From the NCBI GenBank assembly GCA_016931715.1, contig JAFGEF010000107.1, forward strand, positions 21,932 through 85,931: a stretch of 64,000 bases of DNA. Reading direction: 5' to 3'. Positions within the stretch are counted from its first letter, which is position 1. Every line of letters begins with the position of its first letter. The stretch comes from Sedimentisphaerales bacterium. GTDB taxonomy: Bacteria > Planctomycetota > Phycisphaerae > Sedimentisphaerales > Anaerobacaceae. Both the position numbers and the translations under genes were made by a program. Positions 11,179 to 50,588 of the stretch are shown here, one piece after another. The notes below the pieces were generated by a model, which worked only from the letters and a program-made list of their open reading frames with translations, made no database searches and was not told the DNA's origin.

Positions 11179-12192
11179 TTAACGGTTTTTGTACATTGAT
11201 TCGTAATATTTTTGATAGTCGCCGGATACAACATTTTTCAGCCATTTCTGGTTTTGGATGTACCAGTCAATCGTTTTAATAATGCCTTCCTCGAATTTCA
11301 CCGATGGTTTCCAGCCAAGCTCGTTCATAATTTTTGCCGCGTCAATCGCGTATCTCCTGTCGTGCCCGGGCCTGTCGGTAACAAACTTAATCAGCGATCT
11401 TGGCTTATTCAGACGATTGAGTATAAGACCGACCACTTCCAGGTTCGTCTTCTCATTGCAGCCGCCAATATTATAAATCTCTCCCGGCGGTGCATTTTCC
11501 AAAACTTTCCAAATAGCCGCACAATGGTCATAGACATACAGCCAGTCGCGCACATTCAGGCCGTCGCCGTAAACAGGCAGTTCCTTATCATTAAGAGCGT
11601 TGTTAATCATCAGCGGAATCATCTTTTCAGGAAACTGATATTCGCCATAGTTATTCGAGCATCGTGTAATGTTGTATTTTACGCCCCATGTATGCCCGAA
11701 CGCTCCGACCAGATGATCCGCCGCCGCTTTGCTTGCTGAATAAGGTGAATTCGGACTGAGCGGCGTTTGCTCGGTAAATTTTCCCTGCGGACCAAGCTCA
11801 CCATAAACCTCATCAGTCGATATTTGAATAAAACGTTTAATCTTTTTATCGCGTGCGGCTTCAAGAAGTGTCAAAGTTCCTGCTATATTTGTTTCGATAA
11901 ATATCTTCGGCTCGGTTATTGAACGGTCAACATGACTTTCCGCTGCGAAATTGATTATCGCATCGATTTTATACTCATCGATTATTTTCCCTGTCAACTT
12001 GCCATCACAAATATCACCTTTTATGAATTTATGGTTCTTATGCTCCAAATAACCAGCGAGATTTTCAAGGTTTCCCGCATAGGTAAGCTTATCGAGATTA
12101 ACGACAAAACAATCTTCATTCTCGGAAAGAACCATTCTTACGAAATTGCTTCCGATAAATCCGGCACCGCCTGTAACAAGAATCTTTTTCAT
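11179..12192 (-). CDS. rfbB: dTDP-glucose 4,6-dehydratase
   Basis: Supporting motifs are MKKILVTGGAGFIGSNFV, ISTDEVYG, PYSASKAAADHLV and TDRPGHDRRYAID. The ATG at 12192 forms an ATGA overlap with the rfbD stop. Confidence 0.9.
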   Translation of the reverse strand: MKKILVTGGAGFIGSNFVRMVLSENEDCFVVNLDKLTYAGNLENLAGYLEHKNHKFIKGDICDGKLTGKIIDEYKIDAIINFAAESHVDRSITEPKIFIETNIAGTLTLLEAARDKKIKRFIQISTDEVYGELGPQGKFTEQTPLSPNSPYSASKAAADHLVGAFGHTWGVKYNITRCSNNYGEYQFPEKMIPLMINNALNDKELPVYGDGLNVRDWLYVYDHCAAIWKVLENAPPGEIYNIGGCNEKTNLEVVGLILNRLNKPRSLIKFVTDRPGHDRRYAIDAAKIMNELGWKPSVKFEEGIIKTIDWYIQNQKWLKNVVSGDYQKYYESMYKNR

Positions 12193-13037
12193 AATTTTTT
12201 CAAATATCTTTCCAACATAACCTGCCATGACTCAATTTGCCCGCCGAGCAGGGCTGCTATTTTACTGCAATCGAAGCGGCTGTTCAGCGGCCTGGCCGCC
12301 GGTGTTACATAGTCGCTCGTTTTACATGGCAACAGATTAACATTCATCGAGAGCTTGTCAAATACAAACTTAGCCATCTCATACCGGCTTACATAACCGG
12401 AACTGGCGAAATGAAACAAACCGAGCGGCTTTTTCTCCAGCATCCTGCATATTGCTTTTGAAACTTCCGTTGTAGCAGTCGGTGAGCCTACCTGGTCATC
12501 GACGACTTTTACCGTGTTATTTGTTTTTGCCCGCTGGATTAATTTAGATACGAAATTATTTCCTGCTGAACCGTAGGTCCACTGCACTCGCACAATACAA
12601 TATTTGCAGCCGCTTTGAGCGAGAAGCTGTTCTCCGGCAAGTTTTGTTCTGCCATACTCGCTGATTGGATTCGGCAAGTCGGTTTCGATGTAAGGTTTTT
12701 CCTGCCTGCCGTCAAAAACAAAGTCCGTGCCGATATGCAGCACCCATGTATTATTATCCCCTGCAATTGCACCGAGCCGCCCCGCCGCTTCCGCATTTAC
12801 TTTATATGCCAATTCTTTCTGGCTTTCAGATCCATCGACATTCGTATAAGCGGCGCAGTTTATTACAACATCCGCGTGTTTTATCACTTTTTCGAGCTGC
12901 TTTAAATTTGTAATATCAAATTCAGGCAGGTCAAAAACCTGAACATTAATATTACGCTCATTGCATGTTTTAACAAGGTCTGTCCCAAGCATTCCTTTGC
13001 CGCCGAGAATTACTATACGAGGTTTGTTTAATGTCAT
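12189..13037 (-). CDS. rfbD: dTDP-4-dehydrorhamnose reductase
   Basis: Supporting motifs are IVILGGKGMLGTDL, NCAAYTNVD, YGRTKLAGEQ and VVDDQVGSPT. The start is taken at the internal ATG 13037. Confidence 0.85.
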   Translation of the reverse strand: MTLNKPRIVILGGKGMLGTDLVKTCNERNINVQVFDLPEFDITNLKQLEKVIKHADVVINCAAYTNVDGSESQKELAYKVNAEAAGRLGAIAGDNNTWVLHIGTDFVFDGRQEKPYIETDLPNPISEYGRTKLAGEQLLAQSGCKYCIVRVQWTYGSAGNNFVSKLIQRAKTNNTVKVVDDQVGSPTATTEVSKAICRMLEKKPLGLFHFASSGYVSRYEMAKFVFDKLSMNVNLLPCKTSDYVTPAARPLNSRFDCSKIAALLGGQIESWQVMLERYLKKL

Positions 13038-13050
13038 TAAAAACTCCAGT

Positions 13051-13779
13051 TTATTTTGGCGGATTTTCCAATACCAGCTCATTTGCCTTGCTCAGCGACT
13101 CGAAAGTCCCCGCGTCAGTCCACCAGCCGTCGAGAATGTCAAAAGCAAGCTCTCCCTTTTTAATATAAGCTTCATTAACATGAGTAATCTCGAACTCGCC
13201 GCGGTCCGAAGGTTTTAAAGTCCGTATTATATCGAAAACAGAACTATCGTAGAAATATATCCCTGTTACGGCATAATTCGTTTTCGGATTTTTCGGTTTT
13301 TCTTCTATGCCGACCACCTTATCGCCAACTATCTCGGCAACTCCGAAACGCTGAGGACTTGGCACCTGTTTAAGAAGTATTCTCGCACCCTTTTTATGAG
13401 CGAGGAATTTATTGGAATAATTTTTCAGGCTGTCTTCAAAGATATTGTCCCCAAGGATAACCACAATAGGCTGGTTTTGTGCAAAATTCTCCGCTAAAGC
13501 AAGCGCCTGTGCGATGCCACCCGCCTGGTCCTGAACCTTATATGTGAACCGGCAGCCGAAATTTGTGCCGGAGCCTAAAAGGTTCACAACGTCTCCCATG
13601 TGTTCGAGACCGGTAACAATCAAAATCTCTTCGATACCTATCCCTCTAAGTTTCTCGATAGGATAATAAATCATGGGCTTTTGCCCTACAGGCAGAAGAT
13701 GTTTATTCGTTACCTTAGTCAGCGGCATAAGACGCGAGCCTGTGCCGCCTGCAAGAACCACACCTCTTAAAAGCATCAT
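13051..13779 (-). CDS. rfbA: glucose-1-phosphate thymidylyltransferase-like nucleotidyltransferase (short form)
   Basis: Supporting motifs are GVVLAGGTGSRLMPLTKVTNKHLLPVGQKPMIYYPIEKL and QDQAGGIAQAL. The track start at 13797 is GTG. ATGATG at 13779 follows a GAAAGGGAAA RBS-like run. Confidence 0.8.
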   Translation of the reverse strand: MMLLRGVVLAGGTGSRLMPLTKVTNKHLLPVGQKPMIYYPIEKLRGIGIEEILIVTGLEHMGDVVNLLGSGTNFGCRFTYKVQDQAGGIAQALALAENFAQNQPIVVILGDNIFEDSLKNYSNKFLAHKKGARILLKQVPSPQRFGVAEIVGDKVVGIEEKPKNPKTNYAVTGIYFYDSSVFDIIRTLKPSDRGEFEITHVNEAYIKKGELAFDILDGWWTDAGTFESLSKANELVLENPPK

Positions 13780-13865
13780 TTTCCCTTTCATTTTCACTAT
13801 TGTTAATGTGATTTCCGAAGATTCTATATTATCAGGGCTTCGGTGTCAAATATCACATAGTAAAT

Positions 13866-14981
13866 TTAATCATTATAGAAAATAACATTCTTACCGGTTT
13901 GGTCAGGCTCAAAAATATGAATTTTATTGATATCGATATGAATTTTTACTGTTTGATTTACTCTTAAATCAGTATATGGAATCGTACACAGAATGAGTCT
14001 TTCCCCACTCGAATTACGAAGGTACACGTCAGTTTTGTTCCCCACAGGTTCGACTATCTCCACTATTGCAGTGAGTGTATTATCTTCCTGGTTCGCATAA
14101 GGAATCTGTGAGACATTTTCAGGGCGTATGCCCAAAATCATTTCTTTACCCTGATAGCCATTAAGGCAGGTCATCAACGATTGCGGCAGTATTATAGTAT
14201 TATCGTGCGTTACAAAATGTATTTTACTATTGTCAATCTTTACTTTGCCATCGATAAAATTCATCGGAGGAGTCCCGAAAAAACCTGCAACAAACCTGTT
14301 GACAGGTTTTTCATATATCTCCATCGGCTTGCCTGTCTGCATGATTTTGCCGTTATACATTACACAAACCCGCTCCCCTAATGTCATAGCTTCAACCTGG
14401 TCATGAGTGACATAAACAGTCGTGGTTTTTAACTTTTGATGCAGAGTTTTCAGTTCGGTACGCATAGCCAATCTCATTTTAGCATCAAGATTGCTAAGAG
14501 GCTCATCTAATAAAAATGCAGATGGCTTGCGAACGATAGCTTTGCCTAAAGCAACACGCTGTCTCTGGCCGCCCGATAAAGCATGAGGTTTGCGGCGTAA
14601 TAAATCCTCAATTCCGAGTAGTTTAGCTGTTTCTCTGACACGTTCTTTTATATATTTTCCCGGAAACTTGCGCATCTTTAATGCGAAAGCCATGTTCTGA
14701 AACGCAGTCATATGAGGATATAAAACATAATTCTGGAAAACCATAGCAACATCGCGGTTTTTGGCAGCAGTTTCATTGGCTAAAGTATCCCCGATATAAA
14801 TATTGCCGGAATCTGGCTGCTCCAAACCAGCAATAAGGCGAAGCGTAGTAGTTTTACCGCAGCCGCTCGGACCGACAATCACCATGAAGCAGCCTTCCGG
14901 AATTTCAAGAGTAAAATCAGAAACAGCGGCTGTTTCGCCATCAAATATTTTTGTTATATTTTCCAGTAGGATACGAGTCAT
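13866..14981 (-). CDS. ABC importer ATP-binding protein, MalK/UgpC/FbpC type, with a C-terminal OB/TOBE-like regulatory domain
   Basis: Walker A is GPSGCGKTT, the signature is LSGGQRQRVALGKA and Walker B is FLLDEPLSNLD. The extra C-terminal part of about 130 aa is typical of MalK-like importer NBDs. Confidence 0.85.
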   Translation of the reverse strand: MTRILLENITKIFDGETAAVSDFTLEIPEGCFMVIVGPSGCGKTTTLRLIAGLEQPDSGNIYIGDTLANETAAKNRDVAMVFQNYVLYPHMTAFQNMAFALKMRKFPGKYIKERVRETAKLLGIEDLLRRKPHALSGGQRQRVALGKAIVRKPSAFLLDEPLSNLDAKMRLAMRTELKTLHQKLKTTTVYVTHDQVEAMTLGERVCVMYNGKIMQTGKPMEIYEKPVNRFVAGFFGTPPMNFIDGKVKIDNSKIHFVTHDNTIILPQSLMTCLNGYQGKEMILGIRPENVSQIPYANQEDNTLTAIVEIVEPVGNKTDVYLRNSSGERLILCTIPYTDLRVNQTVKIHIDINKIHIFEPDQTGKNVIFYND

Positions 14982-14986
14982 AATTA

Positions 14987-16777
14987 TCAGAAGATTTTAC
15001 TCCTTAGACGCTTTTTGGCACGCCAGAGTAAAAACAGCGCAAGTATCATATATATACAGAACGAAATACAAAATGCAAACAATGAAACATCTGCACTTTC
15101 CCAGCCATTCGGCCAGGAATACTCCATATTTCCATTCCTCAAATGTATCCGGGTTATTATAGTACTAAATATTATAACAAGAATCTGGATAAAAGGATTT
15201 ACAAAAAAACAAATATTGCTCACTTCACGATCACCTGAAAATTCACCCATTATGCCGAATACTAACGGTATAAATCCCCAAATAAACACGATAAAAACGA
15301 AATTCATAATAACCGCAGTTGTTGTATGCTTAAAAATGGAGCTGAAATACATTCCGCTGCTGCATATTAAAAATACAAACCAAACTACTAATAATATTGT
15401 TAATGGAACAGCAACAGGATGGATGAATCCAATAACAGTGAAAGATAAAACATGTCCAATCAATAAAAGCCAGACAGGCAAACAGCGGCTCAATATGCCA
15501 TAAAGCTTGCCTATAACAATCTGGCTGTCAGTAAGAGTCGAAGTCAATAATAAAGGCCACGAACGAGATTCCTTCTCTGAAGTTATACTGACAGAAGAAA
15601 TAACTATAGTGAAAAGTGCACCTAATCCCATAAATACTAAAGCATATATAGCATGAATATCATCATCATCGAGAGCTTCTTCCTTATAGAAAAACCAATA
15701 TGAGTAGAATAAAACAGACAAAAATAAAATCGCAATTATAATACGATATATTTTCACGCTTCTGCGCAAAGGCAATATCAGCTCTTTCCAGAGGATTGGC
15801 GGCCCGAAAACACTTATCACAGAAGAGTTTGTTCCGGAAACTCTTAACTCTTCTTTGATTGCTTCTTTCTGGCGTGATGAAAACAACTGCCCTGTTGCCT
15901 GACGAAGCGCAACCTTTCGCACCATAATAATTGATAAGAAAATCAGTAATAACGATATAATTAGCATTAATATACAGTTCAATTTGTATAAGACGAAAAA
16001 TGAACTCCCCATACTGCCCGGACTCATCATCGTCATTGTTTCAGCAAAAAAACAAAGATACGGATTCGGCTGGATGAGAATAAATAATAATGTTCCTTCC
16101 GGAACTGTATTATATAATTTGGTTAAAGTAATTATTGAAACATATATAAAAGGCACTAATCCGAAAAATACTAAAAGCGTCAGAATGGTCATAATAATTA
16201 CAATGTAAGCTCGCCGGAAGAAAATCGAGTAGAAAAGACTGAGCGAACTTACCAAAAGAACTGTTGTAAGCGTCAGGCACATGCTGGATGTAATAAAACT
16301 CCATGGCACGCCGCCAAACATCCTGACGATGGCTAATAAAGGCATGCTGATAGCGAGCAGCAAAAGCAATTGAAGCAGTTTGCTTAACAGCTTGCCTATT
16401 ACAATCTGCATGCTCGTTATGGGCGTAGTCATTAACATGCCGAGAGTCTTGTGGTATATTTCATCGCTGATGGAATTACTCAGCATTACAACAGCGATAA
16501 TCTGGGCGGCACAAAACTGAAACCAAACAATATATGTGATGATATATTTTCCAGCCTGCGCCATTCGGGAAACCTGCAGTACATTCGAACCTCGATAGTC
16601 CACAGCCAGAATCCATATGAGCAATAAAATGGTCAGGAGCAGCGAAATATAGGCAAAACGAAGTATATAATTCCGCCGTCTGCGGCTCGATACTCGAAGC
16701 TCCTTATCAAATACAGGGCCAGTCAGCCATGAAAAATTAAGATAACACAATATATAATCTATTACTATTTCAGCCAT
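14987..16777 (-). CDS. ABC-2-type double permease, paralogue P6 (last in transcription order)
   Basis: The conserved N-terminus is TGPVFDKELRVSSRRRRNY. The first-half motif is SISDEIYHKTLGMLMTTPITSMQIVIGKLLSKLLQ. The second-half motif is ITSEKESRSWPLLLTSTLTDSQIVIGKL. It is polytopic. The start is moved to ATG 16777 (MAEIVIDY) by alignment with its paralogues. Confidence 0.7.
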   Translation of the reverse strand: MAEIVIDYILCYLNFSWLTGPVFDKELRVSSRRRRNYILRFAYISLLLTILLLIWILAVDYRGSNVLQVSRMAQAGKYIITYIVWFQFCAAQIIAVVMLSNSISDEIYHKTLGMLMTTPITSMQIVIGKLLSKLLQLLLLLAISMPLLAIVRMFGGVPWSFITSSMCLTLTTVLLVSSLSLFYSIFFRRAYIVIIMTILTLLVFFGLVPFIYVSIITLTKLYNTVPEGTLLFILIQPNPYLCFFAETMTMMSPGSMGSSFFVLYKLNCILMLIISLLLIFLSIIMVRKVALRQATGQLFSSRQKEAIKEELRVSGTNSSVISVFGPPILWKELILPLRRSVKIYRIIIAILFLSVLFYSYWFFYKEEALDDDDIHAIYALVFMGLGALFTIVISSVSITSEKESRSWPLLLTSTLTDSQIVIGKLYGILSRCLPVWLLLIGHVLSFTVIGFIHPVAVPLTILLVVWFVFLICSSGMYFSSIFKHTTTAVIMNFVFIVFIWGFIPLVFGIMGEFSGDREVSNICFFVNPFIQILVIIFSTIITRIHLRNGNMEYSWPNGWESADVSLFAFCISFCIYMILALFLLWRAKKRLRSKIF

Positions 16778-16905
16778 AATTTTCCAAGAACCTCTAACAA
16801 AAAGAATCGTGTCGCGGGCATCTTGCCCGCGAAACATTACCATGATGGTAATGCTGTATCTTAAAAATTCATTTTGTTACAGGCTCCAAAATATTGTTTT
16901 CTTTT

Positions 16906-18693
16906 TTAAAATATATTTTTCCTGAACCTGCATTTGGCTCTCCATGCAAAAACAAGACCAAGAAATGTATATCCGGCAAAACATGCAAGTATCCATGCGG
17001 TTGAAAGAAAGGCGTTGGCGCTGAAGCCTATCCAGCCATAATTTCCAGACGATGTATTCGTATTGGCGCTCATTATCACTACCGCATGAAGAAACGGATT
17101 TGTATCCATATAGACTTCCGCAAAATCCCGTAAATCTGCAATATGCAGAAACTCTCCGAGCATAACAAGAAGTAACGGAATAAAAATCCATATTGCAGCG
17201 GCGAAAATAAAATTTACTATAACCGCGGTAGTTGTATGCTTAAAACATGAGCCGAAATAAGTACCCGTGCAGAAAAGAAATGTCACAATCCAGATTGCCA
17301 ATATTGTTATTTGTATAACAGCCAGCGGGTTAATAATCATACAAAGACTGAAAATAACAATATGTGCGAATAAAAGAATCCAGACAGGAATCAATCGTCT
17401 CAATGTGCCTGCATATTTTCCGAACAGAATCTGCCTGTCATCCAGCGTAGTCATAAGCAGTATAGGCCATGAGCGAGCTTCTTTTTCAGTCGTTATTCCT
17501 GTGGCAGTAAGAATAATAGTGAATAAAGTTCCAAAAATCAGGAACGCCATTACAAAAAGCATGTGAACTTCTCTGTCATCCAATATCCTTTCTCTCGCGC
17601 AAAGCCAGTAAATAAAAATCAGCAGGCTCAATACGAGAAAAATACATATCGCAGAGAATATTTTATGCCGCCCGAACATAGGCATTCTCAGCTCTTTCCA
17701 AATAACAGGCGGATCCTTTACCGTCCTTATTTTTATATCAGGCTCCTGTTCGGCGGCTCCATATTTGGCGTACTTGTTTTTTTTACGTGCCGGCCTAAAT
17801 AACAATTGCCCCGTTGCCTGACGCAGCGCGACCCTGCGAACAAGAATCGTGGAAATTGTCAGAATGACGATAGAAGCCGCGGCTAATATGCCGCAGTTCA
17901 ACTGCCATGAGAAGAATGGAATACGACCAGGATTAGGCTCCAAAAGCTTAATCGTATTGAAAAACATTTGAACATAAGGATTCGGCTGACAGAAAACAGA
18001 AAAGAAAGTATCTTCATCAATTGCCCGATCCCAATTCATCAGATCAATTACAGCAAATGATACTAAAGGTATTACAGCAAAAATTACAATCAAAGCGATT
18101 ATTGTTTCAATTATTACGATATAGGCTCTCTGGGAATAAATCGAAAAGAAAAGACTCAGTGACCCTATAAATATTATAGTCGCCAGCGTAAGACAAAGAC
18201 TGGAAATAATAAAGTTCCATGGCACACCTCCGAATATACGAACGACAGCCAGCAGAGGCAAACTGATAACAAGAAGTAAAATCAGTTGAAGAAGCTTGCT
18301 GAGCAGCTTTCCCATCACAATCTGAAAACTGTTTATCGGCGTGCTCATTAATAAACCAAGTGTTTTATTATATATTTCATCGCTTATAGATGTACTGAGC
18401 ATAATTACCGCTATCAACTGTGTGGCACAAAACTGGAACCAGACTATAAAGGATATTATTGCCTGTCCCGCCTGAGCCATCCTGGATACATAGTACAGAT
18501 TGTATCCGCTTGTCTGAACAACATTTACCCAGAAAAAAAACAAAATAGTTGACAGCAGTGATATGTATGCGAAACGCAGGACATAATTTCTGCGTCTCCG
18601 GCTGGATACTCTCAGCTCCTTATCAAATATAGGTCCCAGCAGCCAAAAGGGATTCAATATTCGCCCGAAAAATTTTATCAAAGCCTCAGCCAT
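16906..18693 (-). CDS. ABC-2-type double permease, paralogue P5
   Basis: Motifs are LGPIFDKELRVSSRRRRNY, SISDEIYNKTLGLLMSTPINSFQIVMGKLLSKLLQ and ITTEKEARSWPILLMTTLDDRQILFGKY. The start is moved to ATG 18693 (MAEALIKFF), 4 nt after the P4 stop. Confidence 0.7.
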   Translation of the reverse strand: MAEALIKFFGRILNPFWLLGPIFDKELRVSSRRRRNYVLRFAYISLLSTILFFFWVNVVQTSGYNLYYVSRMAQAGQAIISFIVWFQFCATQLIAVIMLSTSISDEIYNKTLGLLMSTPINSFQIVMGKLLSKLLQLILLLVISLPLLAVVRIFGGVPWNFIISSLCLTLATIIFIGSLSLFFSIYSQRAYIVIIETIIALIVIFAVIPLVSFAVIDLMNWDRAIDEDTFFSVFCQPNPYVQMFFNTIKLLEPNPGRIPFFSWQLNCGILAAASIVILTISTILVRRVALRQATGQLLFRPARKKNKYAKYGAAEQEPDIKIRTVKDPPVIWKELRMPMFGRHKIFSAICIFLVLSLLIFIYWLCARERILDDREVHMLFVMAFLIFGTLFTIILTATGITTEKEARSWPILLMTTLDDRQILFGKYAGTLRRLIPVWILLFAHIVIFSLCMIINPLAVIQITILAIWIVTFLFCTGTYFGSCFKHTTTAVIVNFIFAAAIWIFIPLLLVMLGEFLHIADLRDFAEVYMDTNPFLHAVVIMSANTNTSSGNYGWIGFSANAFLSTAWILACFAGYTFLGLVFAWRAKCRFRKNIF

Positions 18694-18697
18694 TTTT

Positions 18698-20461
18698 TTA
18701 TAAAATCCTCCAGCGTATATGGTTTGCCGAAAGCTGATATGCACCGTAAGTCACCAGCAAATATATGACAGTATATATAATAAACGAAAAATGAGATGCT
18801 GCTATTATTTTAATTATGTACAAAGGAGTATTCGGGGAAATATTAAATGAATCAAACATTTCAATAAAACCGCCCCAAACACCAAAAATAGAAGCTGCAG
18901 CAAACAGAGGGCTTACGAAATATAAAAATGGAATACAGCAAACAGGAATTATACACGTTAAAAAAGTTATTATATTCAAGATGGAGGATGTTGTACTGCG
19001 TTTGCACATGGAACTGAACATAACACCGATAGAAGATACAAGCAATGCGCTGCTTATCGCTATAAGCACTAAAGGTATAAAAACAGGAGCTTTTATAATA
19101 CCGGCCAGAATAAACACAACCAGGTGAGCCGCAAGAAGAAGCCAGTATCCCCATGCACGCAGACATGAGCCGATTATTTTACACAAGGCTATTTCTTTTT
19201 CTGCTAAGGGACTTGTAAGCAAAATGGGCCATGACCTTGCCTCTTTTTCGTTCGTTATGCTCATTGAAGCAAATGTAGAAGTACGAATCAGGGCGATAAA
19301 GAAATATACGAGCACAAAGACTATATGGGTTACAATCCTGCCCAAAACTTCATAATAGATGCACAAGCCATAGGCAGTAACTAAAAATGCCAGCGATAAC
19401 AAAATACCTAATGCACTTGTAATACGATTCGGCTTAATCATCGGATTCGCTATTTCCCTCCAAATCACCGGGTGCCATTTGATATCTCTTATTTTTCCCG
19501 ACACAGGCGAGGAACTGTAACTTTGCCGGAGTTTTTTATCCGCTATTTTTCGCTCCTTCCTCGTTAAAAACAAGCCTGCCTGTCCCGTAATCTGTCTCAA
19601 GCCTGCCTTGCGAACACAGGATACAGACCAAATAAAAACAATGACAGACAAACCAAGCATAACAGCGCAATGCAATAACCATGTTTCGCCGGGAATAGAC
19701 GCTGAAGGCAATTGCATGGCAGTTGTTATGGTACGCATAAGCATAAATGGATTAATAAAAAACAGCCCAAGTTTGGGAATAAGCAAATGAAGATTATCCT
19801 TGCAGAATTCTCTCATAATAACAAAAGCAATCAGGGGCCCGGCATAAATAAAGAAACAGACCAAAAGAGTCCTGCTGATGACAAGATGCGACTGGCGATT
19901 GTAAATGGAAAATATAAGGCTTATAGTGCCTGCAAAAATCGATGCTGTTAAAGTTATGCAAAGGCTTGAAATAACAAAATACCAGGGAATCCCGCCAAAT
20001 ACTCGTATGATAGCTAAAAGAGGCAAACTAATCGCAATAAGCAGCAGCAGTTGAAGCAGTTTGCTCAGAAGTTTTCCAAAGACAATCTGGAAACTGCTTA
20101 TCGGAGTCGTCATTAAAACGCCTAATGTCTTGCTGTATATTTCATCGCTTATCGCCGTGCTTAACATAACAACGGCAAGAAACTGAACTATGATAAACTG
20201 AAACCAGACGATTGCAGTCGTAATACTGATTCCAACCTGTGCCAACTGAGACACCTGCATGACGGACGGGTATTGACCTCTGTAGCCAAAGACTCTCGTA
20301 AATGCAGAAGCAACAAAGAAAGCCAAAAAAAACGGATATGCGAAGCGGACAAAATAATTCCTCCTCCTCCGACTGGATACTATCAGCTCTTTTGCGAATA
20401 TCGGCCCGAAAAGCCGGACAGGATTTATATATTCCAGAATATCGATTAAAGTACTGTTCAT
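18698..20461 (-). CDS. ABC-2-type double permease, paralogue P4 (most divergent N- and C-termini)
   Basis: Motifs are FGPIFAKELIVSSRRRRNY, AISDEIYSKTLGVLMTTPISSFQIVFGKLLSKLLQ and ITNEKEARSWPILLTSPLAEKEIALCKI. The start is moved to ATG 20461 (MNSTLIDIL). Confidence 0.7.
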   Translation of the reverse strand: MNSTLIDILEYINPVRLFGPIFAKELIVSSRRRRNYFVRFAYPFFLAFFVASAFTRVFGYRGQYPSVMQVSQLAQVGISITTAIVWFQFIIVQFLAVVMLSTAISDEIYSKTLGVLMTTPISSFQIVFGKLLSKLLQLLLLIAISLPLLAIIRVFGGIPWYFVISSLCITLTASIFAGTISLIFSIYNRQSHLVISRTLLVCFFIYAGPLIAFVIMREFCKDNLHLLIPKLGLFFINPFMLMRTITTAMQLPSASIPGETWLLHCAVMLGLSVIVFIWSVSCVRKAGLRQITGQAGLFLTRKERKIADKKLRQSYSSSPVSGKIRDIKWHPVIWREIANPMIKPNRITSALGILLSLAFLVTAYGLCIYYEVLGRIVTHIVFVLVYFFIALIRTSTFASMSITNEKEARSWPILLTSPLAEKEIALCKIIGSCLRAWGYWLLLAAHLVVFILAGIIKAPVFIPLVLIAISSALLVSSIGVMFSSMCKRSTTSSILNIITFLTCIIPVCCIPFLYFVSPLFAAASIFGVWGGFIEMFDSFNISPNTPLYIIKIIAASHFSFIIYTVIYLLVTYGAYQLSANHIRWRIL

Positions 20462-20469
20462 AAATAATA

Positions 20470-22254
20470 TTAAAAAATGTGCCTTCGAAACTGACATTTG
20501 GCACGCCACGCAAAAAAAGCCCCTGAAAGTAAATAAGCAAATACAATATTTGTCATTAAAATAAAAGAACTCAAATAATCACGAGTTTGATCAGGCCATG
20601 TTATATATTGACGCACAGTATATAAATCAGTTGTCATTATTGTTTGTGTTAAAATAAACGGATTTATAATCATATAACTTCTATTGAACGGCCCGAATTG
20701 AAAATATTGTGCATAAAAGCGGGGAATATTAGAATCAATAACTACCGGAAATACTAACCATATTACCGACAAGAGAATAATTATCGCAATAATAGCATTG
20801 CTCGTATTTTTAAATCGAGAGCTGAAATAAAGACTCGCACCATAAAGAAAAGCTACAATTCCAATCATCATTATTGTCAGAAGGAAAAGTGATAAAGGAC
20901 CACGGCCTGATATGTTTGTGAATGCACAAAAATAAATAAAGAGCATTATCCAAATCGGCAGGATTCTCCTTAATATACCCACAAACTTGCCGGACATTAT
21001 CTGCCAATCGGACAGCGGCGTCATCAGTAAAGAACACCATGTTTGAGCTTCCTTCTCGGAAGTAATACATCTGACAGAAAAAAATACAGTGGAAAAGACT
21101 CCAAATCCCATAAATACATATAGATATAAGGTCAGTGCTTCGTCATATCCGTATTCACTGGCAATGTATGGGAATAAATACATAGCTATAATCATTATAA
21201 GCTCGATACTGATTATAATCGCAACGAACATTTTCTCCCTGCTTGAGAATTTCATTCTCATCTCTTTCCATGCAACCGCTGGACCCCACACATGCCGTAT
21301 TTGCTCATCTGGTTTTATCTTTTTAGTCGCAAATAATTTGTCGCAGAAAATATCTATCCGTCGAATCATTCTTTTCCAAAAACTCTTTTGTCCAAAAGCG
21401 TTTGCAAGCGCAATCTTTCTCAACAGATGGGATGATCTCAATAATAAAATCAATGATATTAAAAGTAAAAGAGAACTATAAATTATCAATTCATTATTAA
21501 AAATATTCTGTCCGGGAGAACGTATATAATTTATAATCTTTTCAAATATAAAAAAAGGAGAAAAAGATGGACTCCTATAACCATACCTGTTGAAGGAAAT
21601 GCCTCTTGAAAATCTAACGAAATCCAGATTTCTTAATCCATAAAGAAAACCAAGAATAGACATAGTCAAAATAATTACAAAATAAGCTTGTCGAAATACA
21701 ACAGAAAAAAACAGGCTAAGCGAGCCGGCGAAAATCACCGCAACCAGCGTTACACAAAGACTCGTCAAAATATAGCTCCATGAAACACCGCCAAAGATTC
21801 GGACTATAGCCAAAAGCGGCAGGCTTATTGCTATAAGAAGTATTATCTGGAACAACTTACTTACAAGCTTACCCATCACAATTTGAAAGCTTGTCACAGG
21901 TGTAGTTAGAAGAACTCCCAACGTTCTGTGGTAAATTTCATTGCTGACGGAATTACAAAATAATATCACTGCTATTACTTGAGTCGCGATAAACTGAAAC
22001 TGGACTATCGTTACAGTTATCATTCTTCCCATTTCCGCCAGACGAGATCTCTGAAATGTCATATTTCTGCTGTTTTCAATGATATTCACCCATGTTATTG
22101 CGACAAAAAACAGCAATGTCAAAACATATATCGCCCGAAGCAGATAATTCCTCCTGTGCCTGCTGGATACGCGCAGCTCTTTATCCAGGAAAGGTCCGGT
22201 CAGCCATTCCATGTTTAGAAAATCTTTGATAGCATTACTTATAACTGCAATCAT
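20470..22254 (-). CDS. ABC-2-type double permease, paralogue P3
   Basis: Motifs are TGPFLDKELRVSSRHRRNY, SVSNEIYHRTLGVLLTTPVTSFQIVMGKLVSKLFQ and ITSEKEAQTWCSLLMTPLSDWQIMSGKF. Confidence 0.7.
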   Translation of the reverse strand: MIAVISNAIKDFLNMEWLTGPFLDKELRVSSRHRRNYLLRAIYVLTLLFFVAITWVNIIENSRNMTFQRSRLAEMGRMITVTIVQFQFIATQVIAVILFCNSVSNEIYHRTLGVLLTTPVTSFQIVMGKLVSKLFQIILLIAISLPLLAIVRIFGGVSWSYILTSLCVTLVAVIFAGSLSLFFSVVFRQAYFVIILTMSILGFLYGLRNLDFVRFSRGISFNRYGYRSPSFSPFFIFEKIINYIRSPGQNIFNNELIIYSSLLLLISLILLLRSSHLLRKIALANAFGQKSFWKRMIRRIDIFCDKLFATKKIKPDEQIRHVWGPAVAWKEMRMKFSSREKMFVAIIISIELIMIIAMYLFPYIASEYGYDEALTLYLYVFMGFGVFSTVFFSVRCITSEKEAQTWCSLLMTPLSDWQIMSGKFVGILRRILPIWIMLFIYFCAFTNISGRGPLSLFLLTIMMIGIVAFLYGASLYFSSRFKNTSNAIIAIIILLSVIWLVFPVVIDSNIPRFYAQYFQFGPFNRSYMIINPFILTQTIMTTDLYTVRQYITWPDQTRDYLSSFILMTNIVFAYLLSGAFFAWRAKCQFRRHIF

Positions 22255-22267
22255 TTTGAAAGTTTAT

Positions 22268-24112
22268 TTAAATAATATTTTTCCTGATTCTTCTTTTAGC
22301 CAGCCATGCAAAAAACAAGCCAAATAAGCTGTAAGCCGTCATAATATACAGAAGCAGTTTAGTTGTAGAATACACATTACCGACATTTCTAAAATAATAT
22401 GAAAGATAAGGCCAGTCATATTTCAGGCCGGTAAGGCTCGAATTTGCATTATAAGCGCCGCCGGCGGCATCCATAACAACTCCAATCTGGACGATTGGAT
22501 TGATACAATAATATATTCCGGATAATTCTCTGTATAACTCTCTGTTGCGGATGATCTCTGTCACTATCCTCAGGCTGACCGGAACAAACACCCATATCAC
22601 AAGCGCAAACGCAAAACATATTATAATCGCCCATGTAGTTCGCTTGAAACACGAGCTTGCATACAAGCCGAAACCGGTAAGAAAAATCATCAAGCCGGAA
22701 ACAACTATTAATAACTGTAAAAAAGCTATCGGATTAATATATCCGACAATGGTAAATAAAAAGATATGCCCCGCCAACAAAAGCCATACGGGAAGACACT
22801 TATAAAACACGCCCAGCGCTTTTCCCTGCACAATCTGCCAGTCATCGAGCGAAGTTGTCAGCAGGATAGGCCAGGCCATAGATTCCTTTTCAGAAGTAAT
22901 GCACGATACAGACAGAACAAGATTAAAAATTATGCCGATTATTACAAACATAACAGCATATAGAAAGTGCACGTATCCTTCAGCGAGGCAATTGCTCGTA
23001 TAGCATACATAATAAGTCAACAGCAAAGTTACAACAGTAGCCGCAAGACCGACTTTATTATTTGTTCTGTCTATGCCCTGAATTAGGGGCTTTCTTATTT
23101 CTTTCCACATGACCGGCTGCCCTGTTACTTCTCTTACCGAACCTTCGTATTCTTTCAGTGAATCTCTTTTCGTATTTGAAAAGGACAACCTTAGTCTCGA
23201 GAACAGGTCAAGCTCTCCCAAAATCTGACGAAGAGCCACCCTGCGAACAACTTTAACGGAAAAGGCAAGTACCAGGGCGGAAGCAATCAGCATTATGATG
23301 CAATTAATAGGCCAGAAAAAAAATGGTATAGTCGCCGCCGGCGACATCATGATAACAGTATTAAGCGACATTGTTCCCAAAGGATTGAGATGAAGAAACG
23401 CAATCAATAAAGGAAACATTGAAATCCGTCTGCTGTAATTTAACACATAGAGCCATTGCTCCCCGAAAACTGCCGCCAGTATTAAAGGCAGAACTATATA
23501 AACAACACCGATAGTAAATACTGCCTTGATAATAACAACGTAAGTATGAATATTTTTTATTGAAAAAGCCAGGCTGATCGAACCTGCGAATATCGATGCA
23601 CTTAGTGTTATGAAAAAGCTGGAAATAATATAGCCCCACGGCACGCCGCCGAAAACACGAACTATAGCGAGTATCGGAAGGCTTATCGCCAGCAAAATAA
23701 TAATTTGCAGCAATTTGCTGAATAATTTTCCAATTACAATCTGAAGGCTGTTTATGGGAGTAGTCATCAGCACACCTAAAGTGCGATGATATATTTCGTC
23801 ACTGATGGAATTGCTTAAAAGAATAACAGCTAATATCTGCGCCGCGAAAAACTGAAAAACGACTATGGTAAGAACGATGCTCTTTCCTATCTCCGCCAGT
23901 CTGGATTTCTGATACGCCAGTGTTCCATGCAATTGTCCATAGCTGAGCCATGTTCCGACAACAAAGGAAGTCAGAAGAATTACATATGCAAAGCGCAGGT
24001 AATAATTGCGTCTTCGCCTGCTTGAAACGCGAAGCTCCTTATCGAACAAAGGCCCGGTCAGCCAGAAAAATCTTAAAAATTTTATACAAGGATTTATGGT
24101 TAAGCTCGCCAT
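22268..24112 (-). CDS. ABC-2-type double permease, paralogue P2
   Basis: Motifs are TGPLFDKELRVSSRRRRNY, SISDEIYHRTLGVLMTTPINSLQIVIGKLFSKLLQ and ITSEKESMAWPILLTTSLDDWQIVQGKA. Confidence 0.7.
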   Translation of the reverse strand: MASLTINPCIKFLRFFWLTGPLFDKELRVSSRRRRNYYLRFAYVILLTSFVVGTWLSYGQLHGTLAYQKSRLAEIGKSIVLTIVVFQFFAAQILAVILLSNSISDEIYHRTLGVLMTTPINSLQIVIGKLFSKLLQIIILLAISLPILAIVRVFGGVPWGYIISSFFITLSASIFAGSISLAFSIKNIHTYVVIIKAVFTIGVVYIVLPLILAAVFGEQWLYVLNYSRRISMFPLLIAFLHLNPLGTMSLNTVIMMSPAATIPFFFWPINCIIMLIASALVLAFSVKVVRRVALRQILGELDLFSRLRLSFSNTKRDSLKEYEGSVREVTGQPVMWKEIRKPLIQGIDRTNNKVGLAATVVTLLLTYYVCYTSNCLAEGYVHFLYAVMFVIIGIIFNLVLSVSCITSEKESMAWPILLTTSLDDWQIVQGKALGVFYKCLPVWLLLAGHIFLFTIVGYINPIAFLQLLIVVSGLMIFLTGFGLYASSCFKRTTWAIIICFAFALVIWVFVPVSLRIVTEIIRNRELYRELSGIYYCINPIVQIGVVMDAAGGAYNANSSLTGLKYDWPYLSYYFRNVGNVYSTTKLLLYIMTAYSLFGLFFAWLAKRRIRKNII

Positions 24113-24124
24113 ATTATTAATAAC

Positions 24125-25855
24125 TTAAAAGATATTACACCTTAATTTTTGTATTGATAGCTTCAATAAATACAAACCTGCTGCTGTATAAACAGCAGTC
24201 ATTACAAATATCGAAGCAATATTATAATAAGCAACAGAAAAAGGAGTCATAAGACGAACAAAAATTAACACAAATAAATAATTCAAGATAAATTCCACTA
24301 AAAAAATACCTATTGTAGCAATGACAGCCGCCATGGAGTTTTTCATACGTACACCGAAATATGCACCGCAACCAACAATAAATAATACCCTGCTAATAAT
24401 ACTTGCTGCTGAAATCGGAATCTGATAAATAATTTGAGAGAATCTAATAATTCCTTGTGAACTATAGGAAAAATATATAAAAAAACGCAGAACAAAATAT
24501 AATGCGAGCAAACTGATATTTCTCATAAGAGCAGCTTTAACTTTACTGAGAATAATATCCTTATCTTCGAGAGGAGTCACCAGTAATATCGGTAAAGTCC
24601 TCGCCTCTTTCTCGCCAGCAATACTTCCTGCTATAGAAATAGCAAGACGGAGCATAAGTATAAGATACAGACCGGAAATCGTGAAACTAAGCATTACTAT
24701 TGATAGACGATTTCGTAAAACAAGCAATAACATAATTCCAAATATGCAAAGCAGGTAAATTGTTATCGTTACTATCTTGTCAATTTTCCCCTTTCCGAAG
24801 AAATATCCATAATTTTCTTTCCAGACAATTGGATTTCCGATAACTCGTATGATACGTTCTGAATATTCATTACCGCAATATCTTTCTTTCCATATAATAG
24901 GTATGCCGTACACTTTTCTAATATAGTCCGAATATTCGTAATAGTGTTTTCTCTCTGAATCTTCTACATCTTTTATCAGAACTTTTGACTCGATATTTTT
25001 ACGCCTGACAATCATATCTCTAAAAGCGGCAGAACGTACTTTCCAAATCGAAAAAACCAATAAAACAGCAGAAGCGCTCAACATAATCATACAGTGTATT
25101 AAAATGTTTATCGAATTGGCTGGTTTCTGTTCAGCAGCCGCAACCATAGCTAAAAATGGATTTACATTAACAAAAATTGCGAGAACTTCACTGTTGCTGA
25201 ACGAAAGCTGGGTACATAAAAAAGGTAAAAGACCAAAGATAAAAAAATACCCGACAAAAATTAGTATAATAACACGATACGGGTAACGATTGAAAATAGA
25301 AAGAAACAGGCTCAAAGAACCAGCAAAAATTACAGAGGTTAATGTAATAAATAAACCGAATACTACATAATTCCAGGGTATGCCTCCGAAGACACGCATA
25401 ATTGCCAGCAAAGGCAAACTCATCGCCAACAGTAATAACACCTGTAAAAGTTTGCTTAACAGTTTTCCCGTAACTATTTTGAAACTGCTGACTGGCGTCG
25501 TCATAAGCACATTTAATGTCCCCGTGCGGATTTCATCGCTTATCGAAGAGCTGAGCATAACAATCGCGAGAATCTGAGAGGCAATAAATTGAAACCAGAC
25601 AATAGCAATTATTGCATTCTTTCCTATTTGCGATGACCTTGATGCCTGGAATATAGCAGAACTCTTACTCCCGGCGCCAATCACTGAGAGCCACATAAAT
25701 AAAATAAAAACGGCTAATAAAATAATATAAGCTGAACGAAGCAGGTAATTTCTTTTTCTCCGGCTCGAAACGCGAAGCTCCTTATCGAAAATCGGTCCGA
25801 AAATCCGGGCCGGATTGAAGAAGTCCAAAAAAAGATTTATTGATTCCGCTTTCAT
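24125..25855 (-). CDS. ABC-2-type double permease, paralogue P1 (first after the ATPase)
   Basis: Motifs are FGPIFDKELRVSSRRKRNY, SISDEIRTGTLNVLMTTPVSSFKIVTGKLLSKLLQ and IAGEKEARTLPILLVTPLEDKDIILSKV. Confidence 0.7.
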   Translation of the reverse strand: MKAESINLFLDFFNPARIFGPIFDKELRVSSRRKRNYLLRSAYIILLAVFILFMWLSVIGAGSKSSAIFQASRSSQIGKNAIIAIVWFQFIASQILAIVMLSSSISDEIRTGTLNVLMTTPVSSFKIVTGKLLSKLLQVLLLLAMSLPLLAIMRVFGGIPWNYVVFGLFITLTSVIFAGSLSLFLSIFNRYPYRVIILIFVGYFFIFGLLPFLCTQLSFSNSEVLAIFVNVNPFLAMVAAAEQKPANSINILIHCMIMLSASAVLLVFSIWKVRSAAFRDMIVRRKNIESKVLIKDVEDSERKHYYEYSDYIRKVYGIPIIWKERYCGNEYSERIIRVIGNPIVWKENYGYFFGKGKIDKIVTITIYLLCIFGIMLLLVLRNRLSIVMLSFTISGLYLILMLRLAISIAGSIAGEKEARTLPILLVTPLEDKDIILSKVKAALMRNISLLALYFVLRFFIYFSYSSQGIIRFSQIIYQIPISAASIISRVLFIVGCGAYFGVRMKNSMAAVIATIGIFLVEFILNYLFVLIFVRLMTPFSVAYYNIASIFVMTAVYTAAGLYLLKLSIQKLRCNIF

Positions 25856-39615: not shown

Positions 39616-41307
39616 TTACTCCTGCTGCCCTGCTTCCTTTGAAGTCGGGAACGTTTCTTCGATATTGCCAAAATATGCTTTTATTGCTTCCTCATATCTT
39701 CGCGGGATTTCATTGTCACTGATTGCTTCCGCCGCTGTGTCACGACCAGCCTGTATAACTTCCGACAAATCACGCTTTGATTCGCCTTCAACCTGTATAT
39801 CCTTAACATACCAGCTTGCGATGACAGGGCCCTGCCGGGGCGGTCTTTTAATAATTTCCTTGTCCGTATCGTAGTCACCCTCACTGTCTGAATCGCGTTC
39901 TCCCGTTCCCATTCCGGGACCGCCTGTACCCTGGCCGAAATTATTTATGTCACCTTCACGCCATGGTCCCTGGTCGCCAAGCCCCTGTGCCATACCCTGA
40001 CCAAGACCATTCATGGCACGTGCAATTTCCCTAAGACTTGCTTCGGTTAAATTCATCTGCTGCTGCAGAGCCTCCAGACCATCCAACTGCTCAATTGCAT
40101 CAGCTAATTCATCTGCCGATAATCCGCCTGCGCCTCCTGCACCGCTTGCCGCCATTGCACCGGCCATTTGCGAGAGCCTGTCACGAGCCATATTTGAAGC
40201 GGCCGCCTTATTCATAAGGCCATCTATTTTATCAGCGCTCAGCCCCTGTTTCTGCAAAGCCTCTCGAAGCTGTTTTTCTCCCAATTTCGCAAGTTCCTTA
40301 TCCAGTCCCATCGCCTCAAGCTCTTTCTCAAACTGGCCGCTCTGCTGTGCCAAATCTTCCAATGACTTCGCCAAAGCCTGCATTTGCTCGGACAATTTCT
40401 TTTGTTGTTCTTCAGAAAGTTGTCCCCCGGTCAATTCCTTTTGAATTTGTTTTAGAAGTGCGGCAGCCTGACCGAAATTGCCCTTTGCCAATTCCATTCG
40501 CAACTGCTGAGAAAAAGAATCAGGAGAGCCTTTAAGCTGCCTGAGCATCTGCTCCATCATTTTCATTGATGCAAGAACATCACTTTTCTGCATATTCTTG
40601 ACCTGCTCAGAAAGGTTCCCTAATTGACGCATAGCCTCCCTTTTAACCTCCTGTGGTTTTGCACCGGGAGGCATGTTATCCAGCTTGCCAAGAGCTTCGG
40701 CAATATTGGGATCGTTTATGTTTTTCATTGCCAGTTTTATCGATGAAGCTGCTTCTTTGACCTGGGATTGTGCTTTTTCTTTTTGTTGAGTAATCTCGTT
40801 CTGTTTATCTCTTTTACGCTGAATACCAAGAAGGTCTTTTTGCGGCAGATATGCAAATAATAACAAAACTGTCAGCCATAATGCACCTGTGTAAGCCCAG
40901 CCTTTACAAAGCTTTATGGGAAAATGCCCCTGTAAATCCAGCGATTGCGCCTTTTCTATTGCTTCATTACGAGCGGCTTCGGAGAATTCATCGCGCGCAT
41001 CAGATATTTTAAAAGTCGTGCTGAAACGCTCCTTGAGCTTCATCCTCTCATCCAAAAGCAGCGAAATCTGCATCTTGTTGGGCTGTTTATACAGCCAGAT
41101 TCCAAAAATAGCGGCAGCAAAAATAATGAGATAAACAGCCAGAGTGTTTGTACTTATGACATTCAAAGCTAAAAGTTTTTGTAACAAAATCGCCAATATT
41201 GCTATAACTCCTGCTATAATAAGGACTTGCCCTGCATATCGCAATAGAAGGTTAATGCTGCACCGCACCCTGACTTTTTGAATATTCTTCTCAAAAATCT
41301 TATGCAT
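39616..41307 (-). CDS. membrane-anchored coiled-coil protein (possibly DUF4175-like Bat-operon partner)
   Basis: The N-terminal TM helices are VLIIAGVIAILAILL, VYLIIFAAAIFGIW and TGALWLTVLLLFAY. A long Q/E/K/A/L-rich coiled coil and a Gly-rich stretch follow. The conserved-looking C-terminus is EIPRRYEEAIKAYFGNIE. The family assignment is tentative. Confidence 0.5.
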   Translation of the reverse strand: MHKIFEKNIQKVRVRCSINLLLRYAGQVLIIAGVIAILAILLQKLLALNVISTNTLAVYLIIFAAAIFGIWLYKQPNKMQISLLLDERMKLKERFSTTFKISDARDEFSEAARNEAIEKAQSLDLQGHFPIKLCKGWAYTGALWLTVLLLFAYLPQKDLLGIQRKRDKQNEITQQKEKAQSQVKEAASSIKLAMKNINDPNIAEALGKLDNMPPGAKPQEVKREAMRQLGNLSEQVKNMQKSDVLASMKMMEQMLRQLKGSPDSFSQQLRMELAKGNFGQAAALLKQIQKELTGGQLSEEQQKKLSEQMQALAKSLEDLAQQSGQFEKELEAMGLDKELAKLGEKQLREALQKQGLSADKIDGLMNKAAASNMARDRLSQMAGAMAASGAGGAGGLSADELADAIEQLDGLEALQQQMNLTEASLREIARAMNGLGQGMAQGLGDQGPWREGDINNFGQGTGGPGMGTGERDSDSEGDYDTDKEIIKRPPRQGPVIASWYVKDIQVEGESKRDLSEVIQAGRDTAAEAISDNEIPRRYEEAIKAYFGNIEETFPTSKEAGQQE

Positions 41308-50475: not shown

Positions 50476-50588
50476 TGTAAAACAAGGAGATAGAGGTTTT
50501 TATTAAGAATTAGACACTAATCCGCCAAATTAGTTCTGGCGGACTAAAAGGCACAAAGGTTATGGTAATATTATAGAGCAAGAGTACT

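Follow-up and report, generated by a model that had tools for sequence, protein, structure and literature searches.

ATP-binding cassette (ABC) exporters are usually viewed as fixed pairings of one nucleotide-binding domain (NBD) with one transmembrane domain (TMD). In group II energy-coupling factor (ECF) transporters, one ATPase energises several different membrane modules. The shared or 'multitask' NBDs of type I importers (MsmK, MsmX and MsiK) likewise combine one ATPase with several membrane modules (PMC7658222, PMC4519317). In the type V ABC exporter Rv1217c-Rv1218c, one Rv1217c chain pairs with a homodimer of Rv1218c (PMC11406275). Here we analyze a 64-kb stretch of DNA, referred to as the window, from a metagenome-assembled genome (MAG) of Sedimentisphaerales (Planctomycetota, class Phycisphaerae), in which a single ABC-2-type NBD gene is followed by an array of six tandem genes encoding fused double ABC-2 permeases, named P1 to P6 in gene order from the NBD gene. 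P5 and a 713-amino acid (aa) membrane protein of the same cluster, X713, are 100% identical to Sedimentisphaerales MAG proteins with the locus tags JW787_12630 and JW787_12660. We estimate a probability of roughly 0.6 that each permease gene encodes a complete type V TMD pair which uses a homodimer of the single upstream NBD, resulting in up to six alternative transporters.

Paralogy, internal duplication and predicted fold of the permeases

The six permeases are paralogues encoded by intact and closely spaced genes. ATG start codons were picked by alignment with the other copies and with orthologues, which for P4 led to the choice of the ATG at 20461 while the mechanically called open reading frame (ORF) reaches 20509. 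With these starts (Table 1), the ORFs lie at the coordinates given in the preliminary description of this DNA and reproduce exactly its spacers of 12, 13, 8, 4 and 128 nucleotides (nt) from P1 to P6. The gap between the NBD gene and P1 is 61 nt. No internal stop codons or frameshifts were found in any of the six permease genes. Pairwise aa identity among the six copies is 30-49% over the whole length, confirming that they are true paralogues, with values of 42-58% for the N halves and 20-41% for the C halves. A sequence motif that had been assigned to the first half of every copy has exceptions: its W is replaced by V in P2 and by Q in P3, and its MLS reads LLS in P2 and LFC in P3. Between copies, identity at third codon positions ranges over 0.26-0.42, and no exact nucleotide match exceeds 23 nt. 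With nucleotide similarity this low, the duplications must be old, and recent amplification, gene conversion and faulty assembly can be discounted as origins of the array. P5 and P6, which share 49% aa identity and both belong to the subfamily termed E below, represent a relatively recent duplicate pair. In the six-paralogue alignment, P1 alone carries an insertion (residues 319-347) in which the connecting-helix-2 motif is repeated, with PIIWKE at 319 and PIVWKE at 342.

Each permease gene is itself an internal duplication, so that the array comprises 12 ABC-2 modules as originally suggested. All six proteins match the Pfam family ABC2_membrane_2 (PF12679) with 28.7-59.3 bits (gathering threshold 27.2), and matches are found in both halves. 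Comparison of a profile of the six N halves with a profile of the six C halves using hhalign yielded a probability of 95.9% and an E-value of 6e-9 over 191 columns. Hydropathy analysis shows 6+6 transmembrane (TM) segments per gene, and this topology is also seen in an AlphaFold2 (AF2) model of P5, built on 78 sequences, which contains 12 TM helices (predicted local distance difference test score, pLDDT, 83; predicted template modelling score, pTM, 0.74).

The hallmarks of the type V fold are a connecting helix (CnH), a coupling helix (CpH) and an EH-turn-EH element before the last TM helix of each half, without domain swapping (PMC11406275). In its predicted model, P5 displays these hallmarks. 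Connecting helices are located before TM1 (residues 15-32) and TM7 (329-336), coupling helices between TM2 and TM3 (111-116) and between TM8 and TM9 (409-414), and EH-turn-EH pairs before TM6 (227-251) and TM12 (519-543). Foldseek searches of the P5 model against the PDB returned type V transporters exclusively, namely NosY, Rv1217c, PmtCD, ABCG, ABCA, Wzm and KpsM. NosY matches each half of P5 with a target-normalised template modelling score (TMt) of 0.63-0.68. Over the full length of P5, the best match is Rv1217c (8k1n/8k1p) with 620-640 aligned columns, a query-normalised score (TMq) of 0.42-0.46 and 12-14% identity. The permeases share their architecture and fold class with Rv1217c but lie outside its sequence family.

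The spacers of 4-13 nt, combined with the lack of above-chance signals inside the array, fit co-transcription of the permease genes. In a promoter and terminator scan of the region from 13.5 to 33.4 kb, promoter-like sites occurred at chance level using the sigma-70 consensus, which may not suit Planctomycetota, and terminator-like sites on the minus strand were all located within ORFs, leaving internal transcription units unsupported. The P5-P6 spacer contains a G+C-rich hairpin at 16813-16831 (coding strand CGCGGGC-AAGAT-GCCCGCG) with a T-run some bases later, as well as a palindrome at 16835-16853. This spacer may act as an attenuator or a processing site, or may hold an internal promoter. 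It seems unconserved in the related locus L004, where the fifth and sixth permease ORFs are about 10 nt apart.

A single DrrA-type NBD gene accompanies arrays of one to six permeases

To place the array among related genomes, we scanned species-representative genomes and identified 74 loci, all of them in Sedimentisphaerales, Phycisphaerae or Planctomycetota MAGs. ORFs were called in each locus and scored with hidden Markov models built from the window proteins. Genes in this set recur in the order VWA/GATase1-like protein, MoxR, DUF58, BatA-VWA, X713, DrrA-type NBD and a variable number of fused permeases. The MoxR (AAA_3), DUF58 and BatA anchor plus VWA genes, all part of one operon in the window, are kept in related loci, and the array represents one module of this conserved MoxR/DUF58/BatA/VWA cluster, not a stand-alone exporter locus. 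Exactly one DrrA-type NBD gene is found in 56 of the 57 loci with at least 1.5 kb of sequence upstream of the first permease. The number of permeases in turn varies from one to six. According to raw ORF counts, the 28 arrays bounded on both sides contain one copy (one array), two copies (one), three copies (eight), four copies (seven), five copies (four) or six copies (seven, including the window). The six permease ORFs counted in one of the related loci, L001, correspond to five genes of which one is split. The split copy likely results from assembly indel errors because X713, MalK and FGGY genes are also split in the same contig, and pseudogenisation was rejected for this reason. Permease ORFs of 734-1474 aa called in relatives are artefacts of stop-to-stop ORF calling, with the permease match beginning far inside the ORF. 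The exception is a real long ORF of 841 aa in L053 (13526-16048), the fourth and last copy of its array, which has an N-N-C arrangement with an extra partial conserved N half and points to ongoing internal rearrangement in the family.

Beyond these loci, a profile search of 1.84 billion cluster representatives identified 1267 clusters (50% identity) at E <=1e-30. Nearly all of the top 150 clusters are 550-650 aa long and are matched over almost their full length, and the fused-permease family thus appears to be large and diverse in metagenomes. Literature searches on the multi-paralogue ABC-2 array and its MoxR/DUF58/BatA context found no description.

The copies of the array fall into positional subfamilies. 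When 112 full-length copies taken from complete arrays were placed in a neighbour-joining tree, they grouped by array position and not by genome. This tree carries no support values and its fine branching should not be over-read, but the clustering by position is obvious. P1 is found with first copies (subfamily A), P2 with second copies (B), P3 with a group of patchy distribution (C), P4 with group D, and both P5 and P6 with terminal copies (E). The core subfamilies B and E are present in nearly all arrays, with B representing the sole copy in L042. When copies are assigned by their best window paralogue, the orders ABCDEE (window, L004, L005 and L018), ABDE, ABE, BDE and B are observed in addition to lineage-specific expansions of the type AAA... 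and ...EE. The copies fall into about five old subfamilies (A-E) of fixed order, which are older than the sampled species.

All six copies are under purifying selection. Ratios of nonsynonymous to synonymous substitution rates (dN/dS) against the positional orthologues in L004 and L005 are 0.09-0.26, rough values given that dS is near saturation, and pN is far below pS. Subfamilies B and E are the most constrained, with ratios of 0.14 for P2 and 0.09-0.11 for P5. Together with the saturated nucleotide divergence between copies and the presence of positional orthologues, these ratios support the earlier view of an old and maintained array. Pseudogene copies, which according to the preliminary description would have lowered the significance of the array, are not among the six. 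The whole segment is colinear with L004, L005, L007 and L001 at 71-80% nucleotide identity. The segment spanning P6, the adjacent MalK-type gene and the rml genes (window 11179-16759) is 79.5% identical at the nucleotide level to L005:11814-17432, compared to 72-74% for the rest of the operon. In addition, dS is 0.41 for P6 versus 1.3-2.0 for P1-P5, and different copies pair with L004 or L005 in the tree. This pattern points either to recombination or a mosaic ancestry inside the array or to MAG bins that are chimeric.

The two halves of the permeases differ markedly in conservation. Mapping the six-copy alignment on the P5 model gives mean pairwise identities of 0.72 for CnH1, 0.61 for TM2, 0.66 for CpH1, 0.75 for TM3, 0.79 for the external TM3-TM4 loop (EL2) and 0.55 for TM4. 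In the C half, CpH2 reaches 0.53 while every other region is at 0.20-0.37. Across the 112 sequences, N-half identity is 0.46-0.57 within subfamilies versus 0.43-0.49 between them, and C-half identity is 0.34-0.49 within versus 0.25-0.32 between subfamilies. The shared elements are the NBD-contact elements of type V transporters, as predicted for permeases with a common NBD partner. On the outer face of TMD1, the motif R-x-F-G-G-(V/I)-(P/S)-W is conserved, and R152, G155 and G156 of the TM3-TM4 loop do not vary across 78 sequences. This conservation may be a sign of another shared contact, located on the extracytoplasmic side.

The NBD encoded upstream of P1 possesses intact Walker A (GPNGAGKT), signature (LSRGMQ), Walker B (VLILDE) and H-loop (SH) motifs. 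It matches the Pfam families ABC_tran (103 bits) and DrrA1-3_C, as well as the NCBIfam models for the drrA subfamily (262 bits) and GldA (249.3 bits), both below the equivalog cutoffs. Its sequence matches in the PDB are ABCA NBDs, NosF and Rv1218c.

The statement that only one NBD gene accompanies the array holds for the ABC-2 (DrrA/GldA) type, but a MalK/UgpC-type NBD gene adjoining P6 had been overlooked. This gene starts 5 nt after the P6 stop codon. In 29 of 53 related loci, a gene of this type comes after the last permease. The encoded protein scores 437.7 bits against the NCBIfam UgpC subfamily model (cutoff 432). The window contains the parts of a type I importer, namely a solute-binding protein (SBP), two BPD_transp_1 TMDs and an NBD of the MalK/UgpC class that has a TOBE domain. 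These parts are found at opposite ends of the cluster, with the SBP and the fused BPD_transp_1-NHL permease (BPD-NHL) at the 5' end and the ATPase about 21 kb downstream after the array. SBP plus BPD-NHL and MalK are both present in the window, L079 and L080 and both absent in L078 and L082. L081 contains SBP and BPD-NHL, with its 3' end not covered. The exception is L002, a reduced variant with MalK and no SBP/BPD-NHL within 2.7 kb upstream. The importer parts are consequently jointly present or absent in five of six informative loci. Based on family type and co-occurrence with SBP and BPD-NHL, we assign the MalK-type NBD with moderate confidence as the probable ATPase of a split type I importer that brackets the MoxR/VWA/ABC-2 block. 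A role as second permease partner was considered and rejected as unlikely because the protein is of the type I importer class and tracks SBP and BPD-NHL. The permease-NHL fusion of the importer is in itself unusual.

Fused permeases of this family are also found away from any ABC-2 NBD gene. Two loci on one 2.9-Mb Sedimentisphaerales scaffold (JBGLNQ010000001), L033 (10244-12025) and L048 (8339-11695), have no ABC-2 NBD within 10 kb of their permeases. L033 contains one permease downstream of an extracytoplasmic function sigma factor and an F5/8-type-C protein. L048 has two tandem permeases with genes for TPR proteins and a response regulator behind them, and the one ATPase nearby, at a distance of 6 kb, is an ABC-F protein. 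These loci indicate that permeases of this family can rely on an NBD from a different locus, which makes NBD sharing plausible.

In the reading we favor, each permease would assemble with a homodimer of the upstream DrrA/GldA-type NBD in the same way as Rv1217c with Rv1218c, and one shared ATPase would drive up to six alternative transporters. The N half would represent a constant module (CnH1, TM2, CpH1, TM3, external loop and TM4, 55-79% identical) that docks the common NBD and possibly also a common extracytoplasmic partner, for example X713. The C half, in which only the coupling helix is common, would provide each transporter with its own substrate or partner specificity. The array would evolve by tandem birth and death within the roughly five old subfamilies of fixed order. 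Gene counts of one NBD to one to six permeases in 56 of 57 loci and the conservation of NBD-contact helices across paralogues fit physical sharing of the NBD, and transport would probably be outward. The permeases may also be functionally linked to the MoxR/VWA proteins. The cargo is a matter of conjecture and could be hydrophobic or lipid-linked envelope components; alternatively, the permeases could be mechanically coupled to extracytoplasmic proteins, similar to NosFY-NosD. We more tentatively propose a modular exporter in which one ABC-2 ATPase dimer is the engine for up to six interchangeable modules, with TMD1 for docking and TMD2 for specificity, wired into a MoxR/VWA envelope-assembly pathway, a combination that may well not hold in all its parts.

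A number of observations weigh against shared use of the upstream NBD. Binding of this NBD by each of the six permeases is a prediction, and the proposed link to the MoxR/VWA proteins is based on conserved gene order. L033 and L048 make gene proximity an unreliable guide to partnership in the fused-permease family. Our view covers 64 kb of the genome, and orphan DrrA-type NBD genes could be present beyond it. The similarity to Rv1217c is structural, with TMq values below 0.5, and a search of PDB sequences with the permease profile did not find Rv1217c and returned NosY as the sole match at E = 0.3. The MalK-type NBD abuts P6, with family type and co-occurrence as the grounds for its assignment to the importer.

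The limited genomic view and the NBD-distant members in L033 and L048, which indicate that trans partnerships exist, would also be compatible with one-to-one pairing, where one or two permeases use the operon NBD and the others have dedicated ATPases at other loci. This arrangement is unlikely given that CnH1 (0.72), CpH1 (0.66) and CpH2 (0.53) are among the most conserved elements across the six copies, as for a common partner, that 56 loci encode one NBD in cis at any permease number, and that the permease genes are tightly packed with the NBD gene in one apparent operon. The preliminary description had proposed either a family of exporters with different substrates or a large hetero-oligomeric membrane assembly. 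In the latter, several permeases and NBD dimers would join MoxR, VWA, BatA and X713 proteins in one envelope complex, with assembly order or stoichiometry as the cause of the fixed gene order. The conserved relative order of the subfamilies, the identity of 0.79 in the TM3-TM4 loop of TMD1, which suggests a common extracytoplasmic contact, and the constant location of the array among genes for VWA proteins anchored in the membrane and for a chaperone-like MoxR ATPase are in line with such a complex. However, no specific support for it was found, and exporters of different specificity fit better because each polypeptide is already a complete TMD pair that needs no further TMD. A copy number of one to six, with any of A, C and D dispensable, is moreover hard to fit with an obligate complex, and the lineage-specific EE and AAA duplications resemble diversification of stand-alone units. 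We therefore judge a hetero-oligomeric machine to be quite unlikely.

It is also conceivable that the copies are redundant, representing dosage amplification or degenerating duplicates without distinct roles. The relatively recent P5/P6 pair in subfamily E (49% identity) and the split copy in L001 are what such a process might leave behind. Yet all six genes are intact, their dN/dS values are 0.09-0.26, synonymous sites are saturated between copies, and the subfamilies predate the sampled species and keep their order, while the splits in L001 point to assembly indels. Redundancy or decay is consequently very improbable, and shared use of one NBD homodimer by alternative transporters remains our preferred explanation.

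Surrounding gene cluster and other window contents

The features of the array and of the gene cluster in which it is embedded are compiled in Table 1.

Table 1. Array, gene cluster and importer genes in the window, listed by window coordinates
Feature	Length	Position	Strand	Basis or remark
P1, fused double ABC-2 permease	576 aa	24125..25855	-	subfamily A, usually first in arrays
P2, fused double ABC-2 permease	614 aa	22268..24112	-	subfamily B
P3, fused double ABC-2 permease	594 aa	20470..22254	-	subfamily C, patchy distribution
P4, fused double ABC-2 permease	587 aa	18698..20461	-	subfamily D
P5, fused double ABC-2 permease	595 aa	16906..18693	-	subfamily E, core, last in arrays
P5-P6 spacer	128 nt	16778..16905		sole long intergenic gap within array, minus strand
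P6, fused double ABC-2 permease	596 aa	14987..16777	-	lineage-specific duplicate within subfamily E
ABC-2-type NBD, DrrA/GldA/ABCA-like ATPase	308 aa	25917..26843	-	Pfam, NCBIfam and PDB sequence matches
X713 membrane protein	713 aa	26836..28977	-	adjoins NBD gene upstream, 8-nt overlap
BatA N-terminal double-TM anchor + VWA protein	664 aa	29010..31004	-	domain scan
DUF58 protein	303 aa	31055..31966	-	domain scan
MoxR-type AAA+ ATPase	351 aa	31956..33011	-	AAA_3 206 bits, AAA_lid_2
VWA x2 + GATase1-like protein	983 aa	33004..35955	-	domain scan
Type I importer permease, two BPD_transp_1 repeats + NHL beta-propeller	848 aa	35955..38501	-	
Periplasmic SBP, PhnS/SfuA-like, same importer as BPD-NHL	363 aa	38498..39589	-	
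MalK/UgpC-type NBD, OB_MalK + TOBE	371 aa	13866..14981	-	Pfam, NCBIfam

X713 is a conserved membrane protein that may be a GldG-like accessory. It has an N-terminal signal or anchor helix, beta-sandwich and alpha/beta domains outside the cytoplasm, three TM helices in the centre and beta domains at the C-terminus (AF2 model with pLDDT 77 and pTM 0.80). X713 is present in essentially all related loci and has 477 homologues, all of them unnamed. Among 62 orthologues, 26 match DUF4350 (best E-value 0.0006) and 11 match ABC_transp_aux (best E-value 0.0028), all of these matches being weak and sub-threshold. Foldseek searches against the PDB returned low-scoring beta-sandwich matches (COPI mu-homology and glycosidase accessory domains) that were rejected as uninformative.

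Further conserved genes flank the cluster on both sides. Two conserved proteins without a Pfam family, of 470 and 563 aa, are encoded upstream of the cluster (window 39616-42964, minus strand) and may belong to the same operon. They also precede the cluster in L078, L082 and L002, and the 563-aa protein is weakly SpoIIE-like. On the opposite side, dTDP-rhamnose genes are located at window 11179-13797 (minus strand), encoding an RmlA-like NTP_transferase, RmlD and an RmlB-like dehydratase. Such genes lie directly 3' of the array or of the MalK gene in several relatives (including L001, L078 and L082), with RmlC also found in relatives. This neighborhood is not universal, as L080 and L002 deviate. 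The dTDP-rhamnose genes could be a hint of a glycan cargo or a mere conserved neighborhood.

Outside of the cluster, the window encodes a cyclic oligonucleotide-based anti-phage signaling system (CBASS)-type pair at 51007-52493 (plus strand), in which the gene of a CD-NTase/SMODS oligonucleotide cyclase (285 bits with the PADLOC Cyclase model) has immediately behind it that of an endonuclease effector of the NucC type (294 bits; Pfam DUF6602). Farther downstream are genes for a 594-aa protein with a weak PDC-S71 match, a 4HFCP_synth-like protein and a 275-aa protein. The CBASS pair is located in a low-GC stretch at about 50000-56000 with a GC content of 33-37%, compared to 40-46% around it. 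A 1438-aa glycoside hydrolase is encoded at 44319-48635 (plus strand) and contains GH43, CBM6, a GH30 C-terminal beta-sandwich and two Laminin_G_3 domains, in keeping with the degradation of polysaccharides as a lifestyle of Sedimentisphaerales. No RNA genes were detected in the window by Rfam and tRNA scans.

Comparison with known systems

The architecture of the individual permeases is similar to that of Rv1217c-Rv1218c from Mycobacterium tuberculosis (PDB 8k1m-8k1p, PMC11406275), where one polypeptide of roughly 550-600 aa likewise unites two ABC-2 TMDs. It, too, has 12 TM helices and contains CnH, CpH and EH-turn-EH elements, and one adjacent gene encodes the NBD. The layout of one NBD gene with six full-size TMD proteins had been called non-standard. 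This is correct for the multiplicity, but the combination of a fused TMD1-TMD2 protein with one NBD gene is known from Rv1217c-Rv1218c. In contrast to the array, the NBD of the mycobacterial drug-efflux system comes with a single permease gene, and the system is not organized as an array and is not associated with a MoxR/VWA cluster. No significant sequence similarity exists between Rv1217c and the permeases described here.

Work on NosDFY reportedly indicates that a permease of the ABC2_membrane_2 family can power a partner outside the cytoplasm rather than transport a solute. The NosFY(D/L) copper-delivery system (PDB 7o0y and other entries) resembles the present system in that its permease belongs to PF12679, NosY is the closest structural match for each permease half, and NosF is related to the NBD. 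However, NosY is a single 6-TM protein that homodimerises and is 15-18% identical to the permeases of the array. Pfam and NCBIfam scans of neighboring window genes did not report NosD, NosL or NosZ.

The GldA-GldF-GldG system of Bacteroidota gliding motility is similar in that GldA is the second-best NCBIfam model of the NBD, the permeases show weak GldF matches, and a minority of X713 orthologues show weak, sub-threshold matches to GldG-type domains. Equivalog cutoffs are not reached, with 249.3 versus 402.6 bits for GldA and 17-30 versus 288.5 bits for GldF. Unlike the permeases described here, GldF is a single-TMD protein that is not part of an array and is found in a different phylum. The array system may thus be built along similar lines without being GldAFG.

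With regard to ATPase sharing, multitask NBDs and ECF systems differ from the array in being importers with unrelated TMD folds and with TMD genes scattered in the genome. Here, complete fused type V TMD pairs are encoded in cis behind the NBD gene, and it is the sharing that is inferred. If our reading is correct, the principle of a shared ATPase would extend from importers to exporters, and the modular system would be the counterpart among exporters of ECF transporters or of the multitask ATPases that serve importers. The contrast between a constant and a variable half could further help to find specificity determinants of the type V fold, which is also found in ABCA, ABCG, Wzm and NosY.

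The cluster surrounding the array resembles the Bat (Bacteroides aerotolerance) or MoxR-DUF58-VWA operons, which contain MoxR, DUF58 and BatA anchor plus VWA genes in the same order. To our knowledge, classical Bat operons contain no ABC-2 array, 713-aa protein or embedded importer. What Bat proteins do has yet to be defined by experiment (PMC3557215). The permease family with its 1267 clusters has no characterized member and is tied to MoxR/DUF58/BatA/VWA operons of long-unclear role, so that the cargo of the permeases could clarify both. Knowledge of the cargo would also inform the envelope biology of abundant anaerobic sediment planctomycetes. Overall, the fused double permease with one NBD gene and the principle of ATPase sharing are known from other systems, while the literature searched contains no account of a conserved array of several fused type V permease paralogues in fixed order, or of the coupling of such an array to a MoxR/VWA cluster.

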